From the IMG/VR virus record IMGVR_UViG_2579779002_000005: DNA of 21,051 nucleotides. The stretch is one strand, 5' to 3'. Origin of the DNA: a virus. Its lineage: Duplodnaviria; Heunggongvirae; Uroviricota; Caudoviricetes. The notes beneath the pieces are model-generated. The model did no database searches, was not told where the DNA came from, and saw only the letters and a program-made list of their open reading frames with translations. The translations under genes and the position numbers were made by a program. This document shows, piece after piece, positions 2,720 to 13,814 of the stretch (the stretch's first letter is position 1; each line of letters starts with the position of its first letter).

Positions 2720-4576
2720 TTATGATGATGCTGGTGCATTTATCTCCAGCACCAGACTTTCTATCTCAACGCCATACGCTGCATTTTTGGTAATATCCGT
2801 CAGCGTCAGCGCATTCAGCCCCAGTGTCAGACTGTCTTTTATGACCTGGAATGCCGGGCCAGCCACTCCATTCAGTTTCGGAGTAACCGTGGCACTGCCG
2901 GCGGTGAACACCAGCTCCAGCGTCTGCCAGTCGTTACTGTAATTCCCGAACTCGCCCAACTTTGTGTTTCCTGCTTTCCTGTGATGCATCAGATTCAGTT
3001 TGCCGTCTGTGGTCTGGGTGAAGAACGACATCAGGAACGGGTTACCAGTCCCGGTCATCGCCACGACGTCAGGTAACGCTACATCGGTATACAGATAAAT
3101 TCCCAGACCGAACTGGTTGTTGGTCAGTGCGCCTGACAGTCGAAACTTACAGCTCAGTCTGCCACCCCGTGTCAGCAGGGAGACTGCGTCATCCACCGGA
3201 TGCATCAGGGACCAGGTTTTATTGCTCTGCTTGGTAACCTTAAACACACCATCTTCCAGCGCAACACTGCCGCCGGTGATGGTCCAGCCCTGCGCAGCAG
3301 CCTCTCCGGCTGTCGGCAGCAGGGAGACTGTACGAACGGATGTGTCACCATCAGACGGCCCCGATGGCGTGTCGCCGCCGGGCGAGGGTTTAATCTCCGG
3401 TGCGGTACCGCTGATGAAGGCGCTGGTTCGACCAACTGCGTTCAGAATAGCGGTTGCCAGGCGATCCGAAATAATGCCCCTGCGCGCCCATGAACTGAAA
3501 TGTGTCGGACGATTTGACGATACCCAATTACCATTACTACGGGATTGCGCGCCGTAATAACCTGCATCAGCAATATCCGGGTCTTCTGCCGGTAAGTTGG
3601 TGGGCGTGTTGTTGCCGTTACCGTCGGTCATGAACGGCACAAAGAAAACGTTGTCGCTCTCCCTGTTTTTGTACGCGCCGTAGACGGAGTCATACTGTGT
3701 GCCGTATGTGTTTTTCCAGTAATACGTCGTGTCGCCACAAATCCACGGTACAACTGCAGCACTGCCGCCATGGCACTGCGCCGCCAGCCCGGCAAGGTCA
3801 GCACGGAACTGCTGTACCATTGCAAGAAATGCTGCTGGCTGCTGGGCGTAACTGGCATTCGTCATATCGAATTCCCCCTGCATCCAGCATATCGCCAGCA
3901 AAACGTTTTTCGGGTTTTTCTGCAATGCTGCCTTCGTGCGGAAAAGCAGATCCTGATATAATGGTTTACCCACACCCCAGCGTGCCGAATCCTGGCTGGC
4001 CCCCGTGTCCGCACTGAATGTCCCCTCCGCGCCCTGGGTGAATGCCGAACCACCACGACAGCATGGTACCAGCAGGATCCCCGCATTATTAGGGATATAC
4101 GGAAGCAGTTTTTTGGCAATATGTAAGCCCTGTCCGACACAGCCGTACTGCCCTTTGCTCAGGTCAGCCCGGGGATGGTTAATCGTACTCATATCCTGAA
4201 CATCATGCAGACAATGGTCAGCAGGAATGATGTCGTTAAATACGCATACTTCACCACCGGGAGTCACTGTGTTACGACGGGCCAGTTGCTTAATGCGCGG
4301 ATGGGGCGCATCGTATGAATCCGGAAGCGGAAGCCCTTCACCGTAAGCCATGGCATTGGACTGCCCGGCCAGTACGATGACGTAGTACCACTCCGGCTCA
4401 GTTGCACCACTGACGACCACATCACCTTCTGCTGCAATCGCCTGCATCAGGGTATAAGGGGTTATGGCCACCGGACTACCAAACGGCTGCCAGCCCTCTT
4501 TCAGTTTATGTGTCAGCTTTTCCGCAAGATCTGACGGCGACGCCGCCCTGACAACATCATAGTGTTTAAATGCCAT
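2720..4576 (-). CDS. nanS-p: Prophage sialate O-acetylesterase (NanS-p-like, SGNH/SASA esterase domain)
   Basis: 618 aa with a GQSN nucleophile block (VIVLAGQSNAMAYGEG). Located between the tRNA cluster and the holin, as in Stx-type lambdoid phages. Confidence 0.75.
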   Translation of the reverse strand: MAFKHYDVVRAASPSDLAEKLTHKLKEGWQPFGSPVAITPYTLMQAIAAEGDVVVSGATEPEWYYVIVLAGQSNAMAYGEGLPLPDSYDAPHPRIKQLARRNTVTPGGEVCVFNDIIPADHCLHDVQDMSTINHPRADLSKGQYGCVGQGLHIAKKLLPYIPNNAGILLVPCCRGGSAFTQGAEGTFSADTGASQDSARWGVGKPLYQDLLFRTKAALQKNPKNVLLAICWMQGEFDMTNASYAQQPAAFLAMVQQFRADLAGLAAQCHGGSAAVVPWICGDTTYYWKNTYGTQYDSVYGAYKNRESDNVFFVPFMTDGNGNNTPTNLPAEDPDIADAGYYGAQSRSNGNWVSSNRPTHFSSWARRGIISDRLATAILNAVGRTSAFISGTAPEIKPSPGGDTPSGPSDGDTSVRTVSLLPTAGEAAAQGWTITGGSVALEDGVFKVTKQSNKTWSLMHPVDDAVSLLTRGGRLSCKFRLSGALTNNQFGLGIYLYTDVALPDVVAMTGTGNPFLMSFFTQTTDGKLNLMHHRKAGNTKLGEFGNYSNDWQTLELVFTAGSATVTPKLNGVAGPAFQVIKDSLTLGLNALTLTDITKNAAYGVEIESLVLEINAPASS

Positions 4577-4769
4577 GAATCCTCCCGGCCGGGATAATAT
4601 TGTGAGTAAAATGAGGAGCGGGCTGAAGTCCGGAAGTTACAGGACAATGGCAGAAGAGAGACAACAGCCCGCAATACGAAAAAGGCCGCGCTATTGCGCA
4701 GAGTGATTACTGTCGGATATTATTCGCCAGCTGAAATATTACTTCACGTTTTATTGTTTATTCCTTGCC

Positions 4770-4798
4770 GCCCGCGTCTCCCAGCGCGGGCTTTTTTT
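4770..4798 (+). terminator. Plus-strand intrinsic terminator with no obvious upstream plus-strand gene
   Basis: gcccgcg tctcccag cgcgggc hairpin (7-bp GC stem) followed by TTTTTTT. Confidence 0.5.
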
Positions 4799-4806
4799 GC
4801 CCACAA

Positions 4807-5044
4807 GAAAACCCCTCCGGAGAGGGGCTAAAGCCGCGTATCTGTATCATCATGCACATGGTGCCGGGTGCCTCCCGGTGAGTTCAGCCCGGTGCCACTA
4901 AACCCGCGTCATTCTCGTTTTGATAATCAGAGATTATACCGTCACCAGTCGCCCCTCCGCTCAGGGGGATTCACCATGCGAAATTTTTTTAACAAATGCC
5001 CAGTCTGACAGGCAACTGTCAACTTACTGAATTGTGAGCAACAT
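4807..5044. repeat. Copy 1 of an imperfect ~220-240 bp direct repeat (non-coding module)
   Basis: Shares with copy 2 the blocks cccctccggagaggggct, catggtgccgggtgcctcccggtga, gcccctccgc.cagggggattcaccatgc, ttttaacaaa and acagtcaac..ctgaattgtgag. Confidence 0.7.
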
Positions 5045-5292
5045 AGCATTTAACGGGGAACCTGTTTTCTGCAGTAAAAAGGCCCACCGGAGCGGATGGG
5101 CCTGGAAGGATAGCGGTCATGTGATGCCGGTTTCCCGGTAACTCAGCACCGGTATCTGAGTCAACGTTTTCTCTACTGGGTCATTTCCGATACGCCCTGC
5201 CTGCTGACAGGCTTTCATCACATCTGAAAATATAGCACCCTGACTGATACTGTAGTACCTAAGGTTCCAGAAACTGTGATGTATCCGGCACA

Positions 5293-5512
5293 GAAAAGCC
5301 CCTCCGGAGAGGGGCTGGAGAGTGGCGCTATGTGCCATTGCATGGTGCCGGGTGCCTCCCGGTGAATTCAGTACCAGCACCTGAATCCGCGATTATCCCA
5401 TATACCTACTCGCTGATTGCCCCTCCGCACAGGGGGATTCACCATGCCAGTTTCTTTTAACAAACTCCCCGCAAACCAGACAACAGTCAACCGCCTGAAT
5501 TGTGAGACATTT
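5293..5512. repeat. Copy 2 of the imperfect direct repeat
   Basis: Same conserved blocks as copy 1. On the minus strand its gcccctc tccg gaggggc hairpin is followed by TTTTCT, so it looks like a terminator. Confidence 0.7.
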
Positions 5513-5551
5513 AAAAAAAAGCCCGCAAAAGCGAGCCAGTGAAAATAAGTG

Positions 5552-5628
5552 TGGCGCGTTGTACTGGATTCGAACCAGTGACCGATTGCTTAGAAGGCAA
5601 TTGCTCTGTCCGGCTGAGCTAACAACGC
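5552..5628 (-). tRNA. tRNA-Arg (anticodon UCU)
   Basis: Minus-strand sequence folds as a cloverleaf: acceptor GCGTTGT/ACAACGC, D stem GCTC/GAGC, anticodon stem ATTGC/GCAAT with loop CTTCTAA, T arm ACTGG-TTCGAAT-CCAGT, encoded CCA. Confidence 0.85.
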
Positions 5629-5641
5629 AGGATACAGATAA

Positions 5642-5718
5642 TGGACCGCCTTCGGGGACCCGAACTCCGCGCAACCAGCTTCGAAGGCTGGCGCTCTTTC
5701 CTGATGAGCTAATGGCGG
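5642..5718 (-). tRNA. tRNA-Arg (anticodon UCG), slightly degenerate
   Basis: Cloverleaf with anticodon stem CCAGC/GCTGG and loop CTTCGAA. It has one acceptor mismatch (A6-A67), one T-stem mismatch and T-loop TTCGGGT (G at position 58). The anticodon loop is palindromic, so strand is assigned from the neighbouring tRNAs. Confidence 0.6.
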
Positions 5719-5725
5719 TATGTGA

Positions 5726-5801
5726 TGGTGGCCCTTGCTGGATTTGAACCAGCGACCTGGCGATTATGAGTCGCTCGCTCTCACCACTGAGCTAAAGGGC
5801 C
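5726..5801 (-). tRNA. tRNA-Ile2-like (anticodon CAU, ileX/ileZ-like; could be read as Met)
   Basis: Perfect acceptor GGCCCTT/AAGGGCC, D arm GCTC-AGTGGTGA-GAGC, anticodon loop CTCATAA, T arm GCTGG-TTCAAAT-CCAGC, CCA end. Closely resembles E. coli ileX as I recall it. Confidence 0.85.
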
Positions 5802-5850
5802 GGGAGCAGAATAATAATGGTGCGTAATTAATTCTGCAATCTCATCCGTT

Positions 5851-6900
5851 TCAAACGATTAAATCCTGAACTTCCCTGACTGTCTGCTCAAAACGTCCGG
5901 TCTCCAGCTCAACACCAATCGCACGACGCCCCAGTGCCATCGCCGCTTTTACCGTTGAACCCGACCCCATGAAAAAATCCGCAACCAGATCACCAGGACG
6001 GCTACTTGCGCTGATTATCTGCTGCAGCATTTCTGCCGGTTTTTCGCACGGATGTTTCCCGGGATAGAACTGCACCGGTTTATGCGTCCACACATCGGTA
6101 TACGGCACCTGCACCGTCACGCCAAAATACCGCCGCAGATGTTTATATTCACTCAGCAGCTCCGCATACTGCCGGTTCAGTGAGGTATACGTATCCACCA
6201 GCTGGTGGTGGAGCTTTTCCAGTTCACCACGCCGATGCTTCTCTTCTGCCACCCGGGCAAACAGCGCCTGTAATTTCAGATAATCGCTTTCATTCGGTAG
6301 CTGCCACTGACTGGCACTGAACCAGTGCGACACCATGTTTTTCTTTCCTGTGGCATCTGCAATCTGTTTTGCCGTTATCCCCAAGGCCGCGCGCGCATCA
6401 CGAAAGTAAGAAATCAGCGGGGCCATCACATGCTGTTTCAGTGCACTGCCCTTCGCCGCATACCCGGCATCTTTCGGACGATACGGCCCCTGATAATGTT
6501 CCGCGAACAGAATGCGCTCTGTGGCGGGGAAATACGCCCGCAGGCTTTCCTTGTTGCACCCGTTCCAGCGTCCGGACGGCTTCGCCCAGATAATATGGTT
6601 CAGCACACTGAAGCGTTCACGCATCATGATTTCGATATCAGATGCCAGGCGATGACCACAGAACAGGTAAAGACTTCCGGCAGGTTTCAGCACCCGCCAG
6701 AACTGCGCCAGACACTGGTCCAGCCATTTCAGGTAATCATCGTCGCCCTTCCACTGGTTATCCCAGCCCTCAGGCTTCACTTTAAAGTACGGCGGGTCCG
6801 TGACTATCAGGTCAACAGAATTTTCGGGTAACGACCGGATAAATTCCAGGCAGTCGGCGTTGATTAACTCACAACTGGATATTTTTACAGTATTAAGCAT
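5851..6900 (-). CDS. DNA N6-adenine (amino) methyltransferase, no cognate restriction enzyme evident
   Basis: 349 aa with the catalytic DPPY motif near the N-terminus (LIVTDPPYF) and an AdoMet-binding FFMGSGST motif near the C-terminus. No nuclease gene is adjacent. Confidence 0.85.
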   Translation of the reverse strand: MLNTVKISSCELINADCLEFIRSLPENSVDLIVTDPPYFKVKPEGWDNQWKGDDDYLKWLDQCLAQFWRVLKPAGSLYLFCGHRLASDIEIMMRERFSVLNHIIWAKPSGRWNGCNKESLRAYFPATERILFAEHYQGPYRPKDAGYAAKGSALKQHVMAPLISYFRDARAALGITAKQIADATGKKNMVSHWFSASQWQLPNESDYLKLQALFARVAEEKHRRGELEKLHHQLVDTYTSLNRQYAELLSEYKHLRRYFGVTVQVPYTDVWTHKPVQFYPGKHPCEKPAEMLQQIISASSRPGDLVADFFMGSGSTVKAAMALGRRAIGVELETGRFEQTVREVQDLIV

Positions 6901-7037
6901 GGATCATTAAGCCTGTCTCTGATAGGCTCATTCTGCTTTTGCGCAAAGCAGTGGGCCTGAGGTTTGCTTGTGAACCCAACGCATGAGCAGATGGCTGGTG
7001 GGTGCCCCTAACACCCACCAGCCGCCCATTTACCACA

Positions 7038-7064
7038 AATAAAAAAGCCTTCACTGCGGAAGGC
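7038..7064 (-). terminator. Rho-independent terminator at the end of the small winged-helix gene
   Basis: Minus strand reads gccttc cgcagt gaaggc followed by TTTTTTATTTG; the gene's stop codon lies inside the hairpin. Confidence 0.65.
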
Positions 7065-7248
7065 GTCTGTAACAACCGAACTGATAGTCTGCCAGACCCG
7101 CCATAACCAGCTGAGTCAGTATTAACTGGCAGCGTTCGCGTGAAAGGTAAGTATTCTGCGCAATCTCCCCGACTGTCGCCGGTTCGGTGACGCTTAATTC
7201 ATTAAACACCACTCTGGCGGTTTCTGTCATATCCTGCTGTTTTAGCAT
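7051..7248 (-). CDS. Small winged-helix-like protein (about 65 aa; PapI/FaeA-like by size and pattern)
   Basis: Internal start MLKQQDM preceded by a purine-rich ribosome-binding site. TVGEIAQNTYLSRERCQLILTQLVMAGLADY resembles small winged-helix regulators (weak, from memory). Confidence 0.4.
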   Translation of the reverse strand: MLKQQDMTETARVVFNELSVTEPATVGEIAQNTYLSRERCQLILTQLVMAGLADYQFGCYRRLPQ

Positions 7249-7368
7249 GTCTTTTTCCCTTTTCCGGTTAACGTGACACACCAATAACTCTTGTCGAAAA
7301 AGCCAGCAAGCTGAAAGACAGGTATTCACCGCCACCAGCGCGTTTACTGTACTGACGCGATTTCAGTC

Positions 7369-7392
7369 ATAAAAAACCCGCCAGGCGGCGGG
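7369..7392 (-). terminator. Rho-independent terminator about 85 bp downstream of the Q-like gene (possible tR'-like element)
   Basis: Minus strand cccgcc gcct ggcggg followed by TTTTTTA. A TAAATT hexamer lies upstream on the minus strand at about 7442..7447. Confidence 0.5.
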
Positions 7393-7474
7393 GTGTAAAA
7401 AATCTTCTAACGTCAGGCATAAAACGCCTATCGTTAGAGCAAATTTACCACAGATTCGGGAAAAATCAACAACA

Positions 7475-8296
7475 CTATCGCGTTACCCTCTTTAACTGCC
7501 GCTCCGCCCATGCCTCTTCAATGTCAAACCGAACCACCAACGTATCGTAAAAGCGTTTCACTGATTTTTTCCACGTATCAAGCGTGATAGCACTCGTCAC
7601 TTTGCGTATGGCATTAAATGCCTCCGTTGATGGTAGTCTTTCACAGCCACGACCACCACAACGCTGGCAGTCTCTGATAACAGGCATACCACGTTTTACC
7701 GACTCTTCACGATGAATGGCAACACCACGCCCACGGCAGTCTTTACAGGCAGTGGAAATCTCCCCCTTCCCTTTACATTCAGGACAAGAAACTTTCACCA
7801 CCTCCCGAATTTTTTTCCATTCTTCCCAGTAAGACGGATACACACCTTTCGTACACTTTGCCCATACTGGCGGCTTGCCATCCGGATACTGAACCTTGTT
7901 TGTAAAAACTTCGCCTTCAATAAATTTTTCCCCTCGGCAACAGGGGCACTGCTTTTTACTCGCTGCGCTGCGGGCATAATCCTCAAAAGCGTACGAAGCC
8001 ATAATGCGCATCACTACCGGTTTTATTTCTGCCGGAAGTTTTCTCAACGCCGCCACACGATCGCACCGACTGAGTGCATAATCTGCCAGTAATTCTGTTG
8101 CCCGCGCCCTGTCATTCATACTGATGCCCATTTTCCCCAGGAACGCAGAAAACCCCATCTCAGCCCGATTCTGTGTCATGCCCTGCGCGGCCATCACATC
8201 AGTGATACTCAGCGCATCTTTCGACGTTGAGGCCGATGCATCAGTCAGGCCGGGGGATTTTGGGGAGTAGTATTTCGGTAAATCTTCCAGTTTCAT
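7475..8296 (-). CDS. Putative late-gene antiterminator (Q-like) with four DnaJ-type CxxCxGxG zinc-finger repeats
   Basis: 273 aa containing CPCCRGEK, CPECKGKG, CKDCRGRG and CQRCGGRG. Its start overlaps the rusA stop (ATGA), and it occupies the Q position of the DUF1364-DUF968-rusA-Q order. Confidence 0.5.
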   Translation of the reverse strand: MKLEDLPKYYSPKSPGLTDASASTSKDALSITDVMAAQGMTQNRAEMGFSAFLGKMGISMNDRARATELLADYALSRCDRVAALRKLPAEIKPVVMRIMASYAFEDYARSAASKKQCPCCRGEKFIEGEVFTNKVQYPDGKPPVWAKCTKGVYPSYWEEWKKIREVVKVSCPECKGKGEISTACKDCRGRGVAIHREESVKRGMPVIRDCQRCGGRGCERLPSTEAFNAIRKVTSAITLDTWKKSVKRFYDTLVVRFDIEEAWAERQLKRVTR

Positions 8297-8673
8297 TTTT
8301 TGACCTGCTCTTCATGCATTATGGGGTAAATCTTCACCCCCAGACGTCCACCAGATACTGGCTGACCACGAACGATATTGATTTCATCAAACTGCTCATC
8401 GTCCATTAGCAACCCCGCATGCGTCAGCGCATCCAGCGGCGCTTTCAGAATATTGTCCAGATCACGGCGGCGCTTATCCGGTGGTTCTGCAATAATTTTT
8501 ATTGCCAACCTTCCGGACAGGCTTAATTTCAGCCGCTGCTGGCGAACAATAAGCGCCACTGCCCGGCGATAACGCTCCCCGGCTTTTGATACAAAATATG
8601 TGCTGCCACGACGACGCCAGTAAGTGTTCACCGTTGGCGGGTAAGGCAAAACAAATTCTATGCGTTCAGTCAT
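8293..8673 (-). CDS. rusA: Holliday junction resolvase RusA
   Basis: 126 aa; RRRDLDN and HAGLLMDDEQ match the RusA catalytic aspartate region; typical lambdoid position just upstream of Q. Confidence 0.85.
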   Translation of the reverse strand: MTERIEFVLPYPPTVNTYWRRRGSTYFVSKAGERYRRAVALIVRQQRLKLSLSGRLAIKIIAEPPDKRRRDLDNILKAPLDALTHAGLLMDDEQFDEINIVRGQPVSGGRLGVKIYPIMHEEQVKK

Positions 8674-9732
8674 TTATGCTTTCCACTTCAGAACACCCGA
8701 ATTTCTCGCGTGCATTAAAAAACGAATCAGCAACAACAGCTGGCTGCCGTGTTTTTCTTCAAAATCTTTTACCCCGGCGTGTAGTTCGCTATGGCATTTA
8801 CGGCACAGCGGAATAACAAACAAATCATCAGCCTTTGTTCCCATCCCTCCCAGTCCATGACCAATGATGTGATGCGGATCATCTGCCTGATTGCCACACG
8901 TCATGCATTTCTGCGTTTTTACCCAGCGCGTGTATACAGGCATCTCTTCCCGTTGTGATTTCTGGCGCTGGAGATACTGAGCCGGTGACTCGGGATCAAC
9001 GGCAATGCTGACCACCGTCTTTTCCTGTGGTGGGTTCTGTTGCTGGTGGGCGTGAGGCAGCGGCGCAAGATTTTTTGTGCGCTGTTTCAGTATGCTGGTG
9101 GCGGTCTGCTCTCCCGGTATGATGTCGCTTTCACTGTACACAGAGCGAATTTTTTCCGCACGCAACCCCAGCGAACGACGTAATACCGCTTCCGGTAGCG
9201 CGTCCGCCACCTGATTGCGGACCGCCCACCAGGATAATTCAGCCAGAGATAATTCACGCTCCTGCGTACCGCTTATTGCGTGACCGATGACGTCAATCAT
9301 CCATGCTGACAGGTTTTGATGAGCAAGTTGCCCGAGTGATTCGGATGTCTGGTCACGCAGCTGGTTGTCGCAGTGCCAGCACAACACCATTGCGCCGGTA
9401 CCATAACGGTGAATGACGGTTTCGCTGTGATGATAATCGCCGTGTGGCCACTGGCAGGATTTAATATGGCGCAACAGCCAGTCAGACAATGCACCAGCAC
9501 CACCAGCAGCACGAATCACCCGTGCGTTACTGAAAAACGGCAGCAATGTTTTGTCTTCCACCAGCGGCTGGCGAGCGGCAGGAACGACCCCGGACGGCAG
9601 ATTACGCATGCTTTTTGGTTCCGGCTCCACCAGTATTCTGCCGTTATGGAATGCTGACATTGATTCACGGCCTGGCTTAACGATAACCAGACCGAGTTCC
9701 GGTACCAGAACAGATCGAAGTAATACCCGCAC
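8674..9732 (-). CDS. DUF968-like phage protein (YdfU-like) with a C-terminal HNH-like Cys/His motif
   Basis: 352-aa ORF (the first codon appears to be GTG; an ATG lies 24 codons in). C-terminal CMTCGNQADDPHHIIGHG...CRKCHSELH. Synteny with rusA as in Qin and DLP12 prophages. Confidence 0.55.
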   Translation of the reverse strand: MRVLLRSVLVPELGLVIVKPGRESMSAFHNGRILVEPEPKSMRNLPSGVVPAARQPLVEDKTLLPFFSNARVIRAAGGAGALSDWLLRHIKSCQWPHGDYHHSETVIHRYGTGAMVLCWHCDNQLRDQTSESLGQLAHQNLSAWMIDVIGHAISGTQERELSLAELSWWAVRNQVADALPEAVLRRSLGLRAEKIRSVYSESDIIPGEQTATSILKQRTKNLAPLPHAHQQQNPPQEKTVVSIAVDPESPAQYLQRQKSQREEMPVYTRWVKTQKCMTCGNQADDPHHIIGHGLGGMGTKADDLFVIPLCRKCHSELHAGVKDFEEKHGSQLLLLIRFLMHARNSGVLKWKA

Positions 9733-10420: not shown

Positions 10421-12685
10421 TTATACGGAAACTGGCACACGAGCAGGCAATGGATAGTGAGCCCAGTTATTAGCATTTAAAGCTCTTACGCCATCAGCAT
10501 AAACTTGTGTTTTTCCATCTAATGATTTTAAAGTTACTACAATAGTTACAGGTAAAGGCTCCATTAAGGCCGGTTCATTCGCTCTCAACGTTGTTTTAGC
10601 TTGAAGAGCCCAGTTACCCGAAGTAATTCCTTTATTAAATGCCTTGCGATGAATTTTTACTGGTGACCACTTTCCACCATGCTCAATTTGAGCTCTCTCA
10701 TATCCAGATTGACCGTTTTCTCCTTCCATAGGTACTTTTCCTTTTATAGTATTATTCTCAATTAAGCCAAAACTTAGCTCTACGTTCGCGCGAACATATT
10801 CACTGCCGGCATTAGGGTTCAGTGGTGGTGCATATGCAGCAGTAATTACAATCTCACCTTTAAATTTTCCATTTTGAATAAGTGCCGATGGTATGGGATA
10901 GTTTTCCTTTCTCCACCTCACCCCAGGAACCAAGAATGTTTGGAAAATCAGAGTAAACCTATCATCACTATCATATAAGGTCTCAATAACCTCATTAGGA
11001 ATTCCCGCTCCCAAATAGCGTCTTTCACTTGGCGAGTAATCAGGAGAAGATAATTGAGCGGAATGAATTAATAATGCTTTAATCAATGATGGTGAAACAT
11101 TAAAGTCTGAATTAGTGGCTATTCTCTGCCATGTATGCGCAGCTAAACTTGCCACAATTGGAGCAGCAAAACTAGTACCAAAATTAGAGCAAAGCCTATT
11201 ATCTGGCCCTACGACCTTTAAACTGCTTGCTCCTACATTCCAAGGTCTATGAACCCCACCGCCAGCATGGATTATATCTGGCTTTGGAGTAAATACAGGC
11301 CCAGGGCCACGACGAGTATATGGTGTCGGTGTTCCAATTTCACTTAAAGCATCATTAGCTTCCATATGAGAAACTGAACCAACTGTTAGTGCTCGGACTG
11401 ACTCTCCAGGAGAGGAAATTAAATCAGCACCTCCAAGCGGATCAGGATTTGGCCATGTACGTATAGGTTCATCTACATAATTACCTGCAGCAACTACAAA
11501 CAAAATACCAAATTTATCGCTGAGCCGATCTAACTCCATCGCAAAATCACTAAACATCTGCTCATTACATGGTCCGCCTCCCAAAGATAAATTCCAGACT
11601 TTTATATCTGGTCTTTTATTTACAGCATCTGCTAGCCTCAGAATTAAATCTGATATATAAGATCCATTTTCATCTAAAGCACAAACATCATGGATTTTAG
11701 ATTTTGTATCAGGAATCCATGGATGATTGTCATTTAAAAAATGAGCGCCTGATATCAATGAAGACACCATAGTCCCATGTTCATAACTCGTATCAGGAGG
11801 AATTACGTATGTTTCCCTACTCACTACCCAAGGAGTAATTGTTGCCGCGATGGGGCTTACCCCAGTGTCAAATACAGCAACAATGGGTAATTCTTCTGAT
11901 GGTACGGGAAAGCTATTTGTTTCAATGCCAACAGAATCACTTACACTAACCGGGAATGCTGAATATTTTGGTTCTGGAATTAACGTTCTTATACCCGGGT
12001 AATCAATGAGAATGTCTAATATATATCTATCATTTGGGGATAAATCCATTATCCTTAATAAGGGAAGACCACATTTTGGTCTAATCTCATCATATTTAAC
12101 TCCGTGTTGTTCTAATATAGAAATAACGTTTTCATAGTTGTTGTAAGTTGCATCTTCACCTGTGTACTCAAATAGTCGTACAAGGATGTTTGATGATTCA
12201 AACAAACCATCAGTGCCTCCTGGAACCTTCCTATTCTCATCCCAAGGTTCAATGCGCTCAATCGCGCTTAGATTAGCCAAAATCGCTTTAATATTCCGAT
12301 GTAAAATGACTGACTCTAATACGTCAAAACAGCCGGCATGAGCAGCAACCAACATTTCATCTATTTTGGCATGACCGGCATTTTGCAATCCAGCCTCTTG
12401 AGCAATTTTGTTCGGCCTATGCGTTTTGGCTATTCCCTGGTCTCTTAATTTGAAAACCAAAGTACCCAAGCTTCCAGGGTACTCTGAAAGTTTGGATTCT
12501 AAATAATGTTTACTGGTTGTTAAATTTCTTACTAGCCCTTGTCTATATTCGGCTGTTACATCAACCAATACCTTTGCCCCACCGCCAGCGTTTACTATTG
12601 CACCCAAGTCACTACTGGAAAAAGGGATTCTTAACATTGGGTTTGTAACTTTTGCGTTACTAAACTGTGTACCCCTTCTGCTCAT
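10421..12685 (-). CDS. Subtilisin-like serine protease (peptidase S8) with large N- and C-terminal extensions; probably cytoplasmic
   Basis: 754 aa. Catalytic residues in D-H-S order: VAVFD273TG, YEH303GT, oxyanion AAGN402Y, GTS505FAAP. No N-terminal signal peptide is apparent. The ORF overlaps the upstream ATPase gene by 26 bp. Confidence 0.85.
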   Translation of the reverse strand: MSRRGTQFSNAKVTNPMLRIPFSSSDLGAIVNAGGGAKVLVDVTAEYRQGLVRNLTTSKHYLESKLSEYPGSLGTLVFKLRDQGIAKTHRPNKIAQEAGLQNAGHAKIDEMLVAAHAGCFDVLESVILHRNIKAILANLSAIERIEPWDENRKVPGGTDGLFESSNILVRLFEYTGEDATYNNYENVISILEQHGVKYDEIRPKCGLPLLRIMDLSPNDRYILDILIDYPGIRTLIPEPKYSAFPVSVSDSVGIETNSFPVPSEELPIVAVFDTGVSPIAATITPWVVSRETYVIPPDTSYEHGTMVSSLISGAHFLNDNHPWIPDTKSKIHDVCALDENGSYISDLILRLADAVNKRPDIKVWNLSLGGGPCNEQMFSDFAMELDRLSDKFGILFVVAAGNYVDEPIRTWPNPDPLGGADLISSPGESVRALTVGSVSHMEANDALSEIGTPTPYTRRGPGPVFTPKPDIIHAGGGVHRPWNVGASSLKVVGPDNRLCSNFGTSFAAPIVASLAAHTWQRIATNSDFNVSPSLIKALLIHSAQLSSPDYSPSERRYLGAGIPNEVIETLYDSDDRFTLIFQTFLVPGVRWRKENYPIPSALIQNGKFKGEIVITAAYAPPLNPNAGSEYVRANVELSFGLIENNTIKGKVPMEGENGQSGYERAQIEHGGKWSPVKIHRKAFNKGITSGNWALQAKTTLRANEPALMEPLPVTIVVTLKSLDGKTQVYADGVRALNANNWAHYPLPARVPVSV

Positions 12686-13814
12686 ATGCTCCTGACTCCT
12701 TCAGAATGTTTGAAATTACTCTTGATGTAAGTTTGTACAAATTAGCAAGAACTCTGATAGAAAATAATTTTTTATCTTTAGAACGTAACCAACGAATTTC
12801 ATCTTCGTAAGTGCTTAAATTTACACCTTCCATAAGCGATTGCGCAAGATACAAACGCCTATACAATTTATGGTGATTTATCACACTTGCACCTTCAATA
12901 ACTGCATCCCTACGTGCATCCAAGCTCACCTGTTCAATTATTGCTCCGGATAATCCCTCCGATTTTCTTGATAAATCACTTAAATCTAGATCGCTACATA
13001 TCATATTCTTTAAACGATTTTTCCAAATTAACTCTCTCTGATGTATGTCAGGCAGAGGCATTGGAATTCTGAAGCTAAATCGCCTCCAGATTGCAGGATC
13101 CAGAAGTTGCTCATGGTTAGTTGAGGCAATAATTACCGTATCCTCTGATGCCGCATCCATATTCTGCAATAGTGAAATGACAACTCGCTGAAGCTCACCT
13201 ATATCTCTCTCATTACCTCTTGCTCCAGCTAAAGCATCAAATTCGTCTAAAAAAAGCACTGATGGCCTCTGCATTACATAATCGAAAACCTGTCTAAGAT
13301 TTTTGCTGGTTTGTCCCAATAAACTACTAATCAAAGTATCGCAACGCACTGTAAGAAGTGGAAAATCTAAGCGGGTAGCGATGTACTTAGATAACATAGT
13401 CTTACCTGTTCCTGGCTTTCCATACACGAGCATACGACTCGGCAATGCTGCATCAGCTTTAACAAACTCATCATAACGTTGAACATTAGTGATAAACTCT
13501 TCAACACGGGTACTGATTGCTGCAGGCAGAAAAATCTCTGAACTGTCTAATTTAGGATAACTGACATCAACAGTGTTGAGTCGACTATCAATATCTACCG
13601 GTAATGAGCCCAGAGATATCCCACCTCCAGCCCTTTGAGCTCCTGCCAACGCCTGGGGAGCTCTAAGCAACCTTTCTCTTATCATTCTGGCTTGCTTGAC
13701 CTCCCCTTTTTGTTCGAGCTTATCTGCCAGCAACCCAGCATAATTACTAGCCATCGAAGCATTTGCCTTTGTTGCACCTTCAATGATTTTTAACACTTCT
13801 GATAAATAATCCAT
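12660..13814 (-). CDS. AAA+ ATPase (classical AAA clade)
   Basis: 384 aa. Walker A GKPGTGKT (K138), Walker B VLFLDEFD, sensor-1 IIASTNH, arginine-finger region DPAIWRRF. GGGAG ribosome-binding site upstream of the ATG. Confidence 0.85.
   Translation of the reverse strand: MDYLSEVLKIIEGATKANASMASNYAGLLADKLEQKGEVKQARMIRERLLRAPQALAGAQRAGGGISLGSLPVDIDSRLNTVDVSYPKLDSSEIFLPAAISTRVEEFITNVQRYDEFVKADAALPSRMLVYGKPGTGKTMLSKYIATRLDFPLLTVRCDTLISSLLGQTSKNLRQVFDYVMQRPSVLFLDEFDALAGARGNERDIGELQRVVISLLQNMDAASEDTVIIASTNHEQLLDPAIWRRFSFRIPMPLPDIHQRELIWKNRLKNMICSDLDLSDLSRKSEGLSGAIIEQVSLDARRDAVIEGASVINHHKLYRRLYLAQSLMEGVNLSTYEDEIRWLRSKDKKLFSIRVLANLYKLTSRVISNILKESGAYEQKGYTV

Follow-up and report, generated by a model that had tools for sequence, protein, structure and literature searches.

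A long-form Q-lambda-family antiterminator gene and its probable late promoter cassette in a lambdoid Escherichia coli prophage

The window analysed here, a 21,051-nucleotide stretch of caudoviricete DNA from IMG/VR record IMGVR_UViG_2579779002_000005, carries what is very probably the late switch of a lambdoid E. coli prophage: a late antiterminator of the Q-lambda family, encoded by the open reading frame at 7475..8296 (273 residues; the Q ORF), and, in the 105 bp downstream, the late promoter cassette cognate to it. With its four cysteine-pair motifs, the protein represents the long form of that family. Coordinates are window positions unless a locus is named, and all features located below lie on the minus strand.

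The gene sits where the first-pass annotation had placed it, at the Q position and overlapping rusA. Its upstream neighbour (8293..8673) matches Pfam RusA at E 2e-16, the rusA stop codon and the Q ATG share four nucleotides (ATGA, 8293..8296), and the Q stop codon occupies 7477..7475. Family and fold membership can be read directly from the searches. Profiles of antiterminator families, the check proposed in that annotation, returned PF03589 'Antitermination protein Q' (170.4 bits against a cut-off of 26.7, E 9e-51) and, over the full length, phrog_127 'anti-termination protein Q-like' (E 8e-110); phrog_25523, which carries the same label, also matches. The sole significant PDB sequence matches are the Q-lambda entries 7ubm, 4mo1 and 7ubj (best 7ubm_Q, E 2e-38). 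An AF2 model generated from a 42-sequence alignment (mean pLDDT 80.8) adopts the fold of the Q-lambda structures, a helical helix-turn-helix (HTH) body with a zinc-ribbon arm; a Foldseek search of the PDB gives it eight significant matches, each of them a Q-lambda structure (E 1e-13 to 2e-6, target TM 0.61–0.78), the best being 7ubn_Q and 7ubm_Q (TM 0.72–0.78 on target). RefSeq E. coli genomes label the region 'antitermination protein'. Family, fold and gene position, along with the conserved cis elements, all speak for the proposed role of late regulator.

PF03589 is the Q-lambda family, separate from Q21 (PF06530) and Q82 (PF06323), whose function and genome position in lambdoid phages are alike (PMC9388147). 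Neither of the latter matches the Q ORF in sequence or fold: the Pfam scan at E ≤ 0.01 returned no PF06530 or PF06323 match, and no Q21 structure appears among the PDB sequence or fold matches. The literature treats the families as functional analogues, not homologues. We rejected Q21 or Q82 membership, given the PDB search and the placement of PF03589 as the Q-lambda family (PMC9388147).

Pairwise alignment with lambda Q (207 residues, one zinc ribbon) gives 40% identity over residues 1–113 and 183–273, equivalent to lambda Q 1–113 and 117–207, and leaves a 66-residue gap in lambda Q opposite about residues 114–182. Lambda Q comprises an HTH four-helix body (residues 61–113 and 153–207), a zinc-ribbon arm (114–152) that touches the Q-binding element (QBE), sigma region 4 and the beta' zinc-binding domain, and residues 1–44, which refold together with NusA into a nozzle at the RNA-exit channel (PMC9388147). 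All three parts are found in the Q ORF. Residues 1–45 align gaplessly, including SPKSP, TDVMAA and G39, and lambda L202 and T206 have conserved counterparts in L268 and T272; judged by this alignment, both the nozzle segment (codons 1–44, 8165..8296) and its C-terminal contact residues appear to be present. Residues 1–30 of the model have low pLDDT (51–57), as expected if the segment is disordered when free. The lambda-type arm (codons 183–218, 7643..7750; C184/C187 and C210/C213) aligns to lambda Q 117–152, with a cysteine spacing of 26 residues in both proteins. The Q ORF thus has PF03589, gene position, nozzle segment, HTH body, arm and C-terminal helix in common with lambda Q (PDB 4MO1, 7UBJ–7UBN), and differs from it by a 66-residue insertion that carries a second ribbon.

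This insertion (codons 114–182, 7751..7957), delimited by the alignment gap and the AF2 model, probably forms the extra zinc ribbon, using C117/C120 and C171/C174. Four CxxCxGxG repeats had been proposed for the protein. There are indeed four cysteine-pair motifs, of which the second to fourth are exact (C171PEC174KGKG, C184KDC187RGRG and C210QRC213GGRG), but the first, C117-P-C-C120-RGEK, reads CxxCxGxK, one position off. All eight cysteines are invariant across the 42 aligned sequences (54–91% identity to the Q ORF), and so are not there by chance. Surveying the family through 36 full-length representatives (50%-identity clusters) that have the Q N-terminus, we found four motifs in 27 and two, as in lambda, in only four. 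Spacing between motifs 1 and 2 ranges from 14 to 63 residues (54 in the Q ORF); that between motifs 2 and 3 is 13 in 26 of the 27 four-motif representatives, as it is here, and that between motifs 3 and 4 stays at 23–27 across the family (26 in the Q ORF and lambda). Motif 3 is CxC instead of CxxC in many members. The fixed 2-to-3 and 3-to-4 spacings, the variable 1-to-2 spacing and the fact that motifs 3 and 4 are homologous to those of lambda argue for pairing as two tandem zinc ribbons (1+2 and 3+4) rather than a nested arrangement.

In the AF2 model the extra ribbon encloses a long beta hairpin (strands 125–136 and 159–170). Mapping the 42-sequence alignment to it identifies F125, I126, V130, F131 and K134 as invariant or nearly so, and the first strand, FIEGEVFTNK in the Q ORF and FIE(A/G)EVFTNK in its conserved form, ranks with the best-conserved peptides of the subfamily; the hairpin tip is variable. 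A conserved strand with a variable tip hints that the partner is a conserved one, RNA polymerase for instance, and not the variable QBE. The insertion lies at the body–arm junction, and the corresponding site in lambda Q touches the beta' zinc-binding domain of RNA polymerase (PMC9388147); the extra ribbon may accordingly add or alter a polymerase contact. The contact could also involve sigma or upstream DNA, or the ribbon could change NusA dependence. On a reading that we hold less likely than not, most members of the Q-lambda family would owe to it a way of loading, or a contact with a partner, that is unseen in the lambda structures, and lambda Q would be a reduced, atypical form. The textbook model and sole structurally characterized member of the family represents a minority, two-pair form, as approximately three-quarters of the representatives carry the extra ribbon. 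Literature searches (QuuQ, antitermination protein Q, zinc) found no paper on the extra ribbon of long-form Q. Gifsy-1 AntQ was set aside as functional evidence for the long form, its family and length being unstated in the paper concerned. The insertion may or may not have arisen as a duplicate of the lambda-type arm: residues 114–182 and 183–273 share a nine-residue cysteine motif only (BLASTP E 0.013). One E. coli homologue of 337 residues (P0001) has six cysteine-pair motifs, the motif-1/motif-2 segment occurring twice; misassembly might explain this, or the extra ribbon may truly have been duplicated within the protein.

Immediately 3' of the gene lie a TAAATT hexamer and an intrinsic terminator, both of which had been noted in the first-pass annotation and both of which hold up. 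TAAATT (7447..7442) begins 27 nt past the Q stop codon and is the same −10 hexamer as that of lambda PR'. In the alignment with lambda, TTGATT (7464..7469) takes the position of the lambda −35 element TTGACT. The 16-nt spacer between them (7448..7463), TTTCCCGAATCTGTGG, ends in TGG, thereby providing the TG of an extended −10, and from its position and conservation is our candidate QBE. Read in order, the window has TTGATT-16-TAAATT-TGCTCT-AACGATAGG and lambda PR' has TTGACT-17-TAAATT-TGACTC-AACGATGGG. In the window TGCTCT separates TAAATT from AACGAT (7430..7435); the latter hexamer, and its 6-nt distance from the −10, are identical in the two promoters. At lambda PR', AACGAT at +1..+6 is a −10-like, sigma-dependent pause element, and the QBE lies within the promoter spacer. 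By analogy, AACGAT is a predicted sigma-70-dependent pause element here, with transcription predicted to start at 7435. The lambda spacer is TATTGAATAAAATTGGG and that of the window TTTCCCGAATCTGTGG; the putative QBE differs between them, on what is a qualitative comparison. The general arrangement of QBE and pause element at lambda PR' is described in PMC9388147.

TAAATT-N6-AACGAT has a single match in the window at zero mismatches; allowing one mismatch yields two matches, against 0.18 expected from shuffles. A simple sigma-70 scan did not call PR', because its score of 8 of 12 consensus positions falls below the threshold of 9. Terminator scanning and RNA folding place the tR'-like intrinsic terminator at 7371..7392, with a stem at 7392..7377 (six G–C pairs, 4-nt loop) and a T6 run at 7376..7371. 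As far as sequence can indicate, the putative cassette therefore has every element of a cognate late promoter: a candidate QBE in the spacer, a predicted pause element at +1..+6 and a terminator downstream.

These cis elements recur beside the gene in relatives, as observed directly in 58 loci (one genome per species). A block TTTCC(C/G)GAA(T/A)CTGTG(G/T)TAA(T/A)TT, followed after 6–7 nt by AACGATGGG, is kept 3' of Q genes of 55–95% identity in Klebsiella, Enterobacter, Kluyvera, Silvania, Pseudescherichia, Yokenella, Leclercia, Erwinia and other genera. A degenerate 22-mer, TTTCCSGAAWCTGTGKTAAWTT, occurs once per locus, directly 3' of Q, in 19 of 60 loci, several genera being represented; the pause hexamer stays AACGAT in most related loci, and in many it is followed by a G+C-rich hairpin and a T run. 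In distant Q subgroups (43–46% identity) AACGATGGG is kept and the spacer differs (ACGTGGCGGAATTTGG), a change with Q subgroup that is expected of cognate Q–QBE pairs. The DNA downstream of ydfT in the K-12 Qin prophage has the same promoter, AACGATGGG and terminator design.

In other genera the DNA separating the Q stop codon from PR' contains an inverted repeat, ATAGCTyAC...GTGAGCTAT, for example at locus L006 (about 3319–3358), with equivalents at L004, L008, L011, L018, L022, L024, L027 and others. Its 3' arm continues into the −35 region, CTATTTAC, with a T-rich tail, and it may be an early-transcript terminator or a regulatory hairpin. The repeat is absent from the window, in which GTGTTGTTGATT directly follows Q.

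By analogy with lambda, we infer that the Q ORF product binds the QBE, forms a nozzle and confers read-through. PR' (TTGATT-16-TAAATT) would be constitutively active, and RNA polymerase with retained sigma-70 would pause around +16, because sigma region 2 would rebind the −10-like AACGAT at +1..+6. Without Q, the transcript would end at the terminator some 65 nt downstream. When Q is present, its HTH body and lambda-type arm would bind the candidate QBE TTTCCCGAATCTGTGG in the promoter spacer and Q would dock onto the paused complex, whereupon its N-terminal 44 residues, conserved here, would refold together with NusA into a nozzle at the RNA-exit channel. Polymerase modified in this manner would resist hairpin terminators and pass tR' and all intervening terminators, reading through the winged-helix ORF, the methylase, three tRNAs, the STnc100-like units and the esterase to the holin and lysozyme genes. 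As the extra ribbon is without a solved counterpart, loading may follow a geometry other than that of lambda.

Gene order along this route can be read directly, every gene from Q through the lysis module lying on the minus strand. Beyond tR' come a 65-residue ORF with a weak winged-helix (TrmB-like) match (7051..7248, phrog_331), a DNA methylase (6900..5851), tRNA-Met(CAT), tRNA-Arg(TCG) and tRNA-Arg(TCT) (5801..5552), three STnc100-like units (5476..5286, 136 bits; 5247..5074, 30 bits, below the gathering score; 5008..4799, 161 bits) and a DUF1737-SASA esterase (4576..2720), beyond which lie a P21-type holin, a DUF1327 protein and lysozyme. The CAT tRNA may be of the Ile (lysidine) type, the ileZ of Stx phages. 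Terminator-like hairpins are enriched between 4500 and 8400 (14 found, 3.8 expected). The 65-residue ORF, the first gene past tR', has a good ATG, belongs to a PHROG of unknown function and has its own terminator-like hairpin (7064..7047); the tandem STnc100-like units each end in such a hairpin as well.

The route of late transcription had been thought unclear, with a methylase, tRNAs and further terminators lying between Q and the lysis genes. This layout matches that of the Stx2a-converting phage Stx2_EH1910, whose Q region is of the same type (90% identical, annotated quuQ), and the route is therefore not unclear. Both have the order ydfU-rusA-Q-small ORF-methylase-tRNA-Met/Arg/Arg, with the same members and order in the tRNA trio, and the phage continues with (stx2AB), a nanS-p-like esterase, holin and endolysin, stx2AB being within the late transcript. 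The slot between tRNAs and esterase differs, the phage having stx2AB there and the window the STnc100-like units. In Stx phages the late operon is read from PR' by Q-modified, terminator-resistant polymerase (PMC7547250). Identifying the late switch of the prophage would thus unite the methylase, tRNAs, sRNA-like units, esterase and lysis genes in one Q-dependent late transcript.

We considered whether the cassette has a product of its own. The terminated leader, predicted to run from 7435 to about 7371, would be roughly 65 nt, compared with about 194 nt for lambda 6S RNA, the terminated leader of that phage. Folding of a 68-nt leader gives −23.1 kcal/mol (z = −4.0) and two hairpins, one at the 5' end and that of the terminator. 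The 5' hairpin (7409..7435) is closed by an AACG...CGUU stem, its 5' arm being the pause element itself; it is also seen in lambda, in K-12 Qin, at locus L001 (1388–1412), at L061 (about 6390–6422) and at many other loci, and its inner stem varies in sequence by genus with pairing kept. Such a hairpin could stabilize the 5' end or act after pause escape. In lambda and Stx phages PR' is constitutive and its transcript ends at tR'; StxS, as the product is called in Stx phages, is a regulator of RpoS (PMC7547250). The main product in lysogens might by extension be a trans-acting PR'–tR' RNA like StxS, in addition to antitermination, for which the strong structure and the conservation of the 5' hairpin across genera would speak. 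We consider this rather unlikely: an Rfam search of 4000..9000 at E ≤ 1 put no family on the leader, the leader is unrelated in sequence to the 258-nt StxS precursor, and its conserved parts (AACGAT and GGG) are accounted for by the pause element. That the cassette is instead an inactive relic, intact in sequence within a defective prophage that has no lytic programme, is a reading encouraged by the K-12 homologue ydfT, located in cryptic Qin, and by matching DNA that turns up in roughly half of the complete E. coli genomes, many of which probably carry degraded prophages. It appears improbable for this window, in which the Q ORF is full length with all conserved family residues retained, the promoter, pause element and terminator are intact, and the holin, lysozyme, replication-side and nin-region genes are complete and in one orientation; moreover, sequences of 99.7–100% identity recur in unrelated strains.

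More distant still is the reading suggested by the cysteine motifs themselves, that the Q ORF is a DnaJ-like zinc-finger protein (a chaperone, disulfide isomerase or anti-TRAP-like protein) with no role in transcription, its promoter and terminator nearby by coincidence. The DnaJ cysteine-rich domain likewise consists of repeated CxxCxGxG zinc knuckles with four cysteine pairs, three motifs of the Q ORF are exact, and one homologue bears the source name 'chaperone protein DnaJ'. Pfam DnaJ_CXXCXGXG (PF00684) reaches 30.0 bits (E 6e-7), TIGR02349 DnaJ 24.7 bits and anti-TRAP RtpA a sub-threshold match, while DnaJA2 is the next Foldseek match after Q-lambda (E 0.49). Yet every DnaJ-type match falls below its curated cut-off (32.7 bits for PF00684, 377 for TIGR02349) and covers some 50 residues. 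The Pfam scan finds neither a J domain nor the C-terminal client-binding domains, the flanks being Q-lambda body helices; elsewhere the protein aligns with Q-lambda from one end to the other, and the cis elements are conserved together with the gene. DnaJ pairs its motifs in nested fashion (1+4, 2+3), whereas the 54/13/26 spacing here, taken with the lambda homology, favours tandem ribbons. We rejected DnaJ or anti-TRAP membership, as the matches are sub-threshold and at motif level, and Q-lambda homology effectively refutes the reading, leaving it almost no probability. Describing the protein as built on DnaJ-type repeats, as had been done, was an overstatement for a Q-lambda homologue.

Turning to the distribution of this antiterminator, a 1-kb Q region matches DNA in 2,653 of 5,426 complete E. 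coli genomes, with 357 records at ≥99% identity, and homologues of 260–277 residues are spread through Enterobacterales. K-12 YdfT/QuuQ (Qin prophage) has the same four-motif long form at 44% identity, and differs in its length (250 residues) and in a shorter extra-ribbon hairpin; quuQ of Stx2_EH1910 shares the four-motif architecture as well. Within the Q-lambda family this long form is the common one, and it is already annotated. The gene described here is therefore known in kind and of little importance beyond its correct annotation, its one under-studied aspect being the second zinc ribbon. The Q allele is relevant to toxin-expression typing, since stx2 is under the control of this Q type in at least one Stx2a phage.

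The prophage also carries, upstream of its DUF968-rusA-Q block, an IetAS anti-phage defence pair (10421..13814), composed of an IetA ATPase (12660..13814; PADLOC PDLC02196, E 9e-143) and an IetS subtilase (10421..12685; PDLC02197, E 6e-300; Pfam Peptidase_S8).
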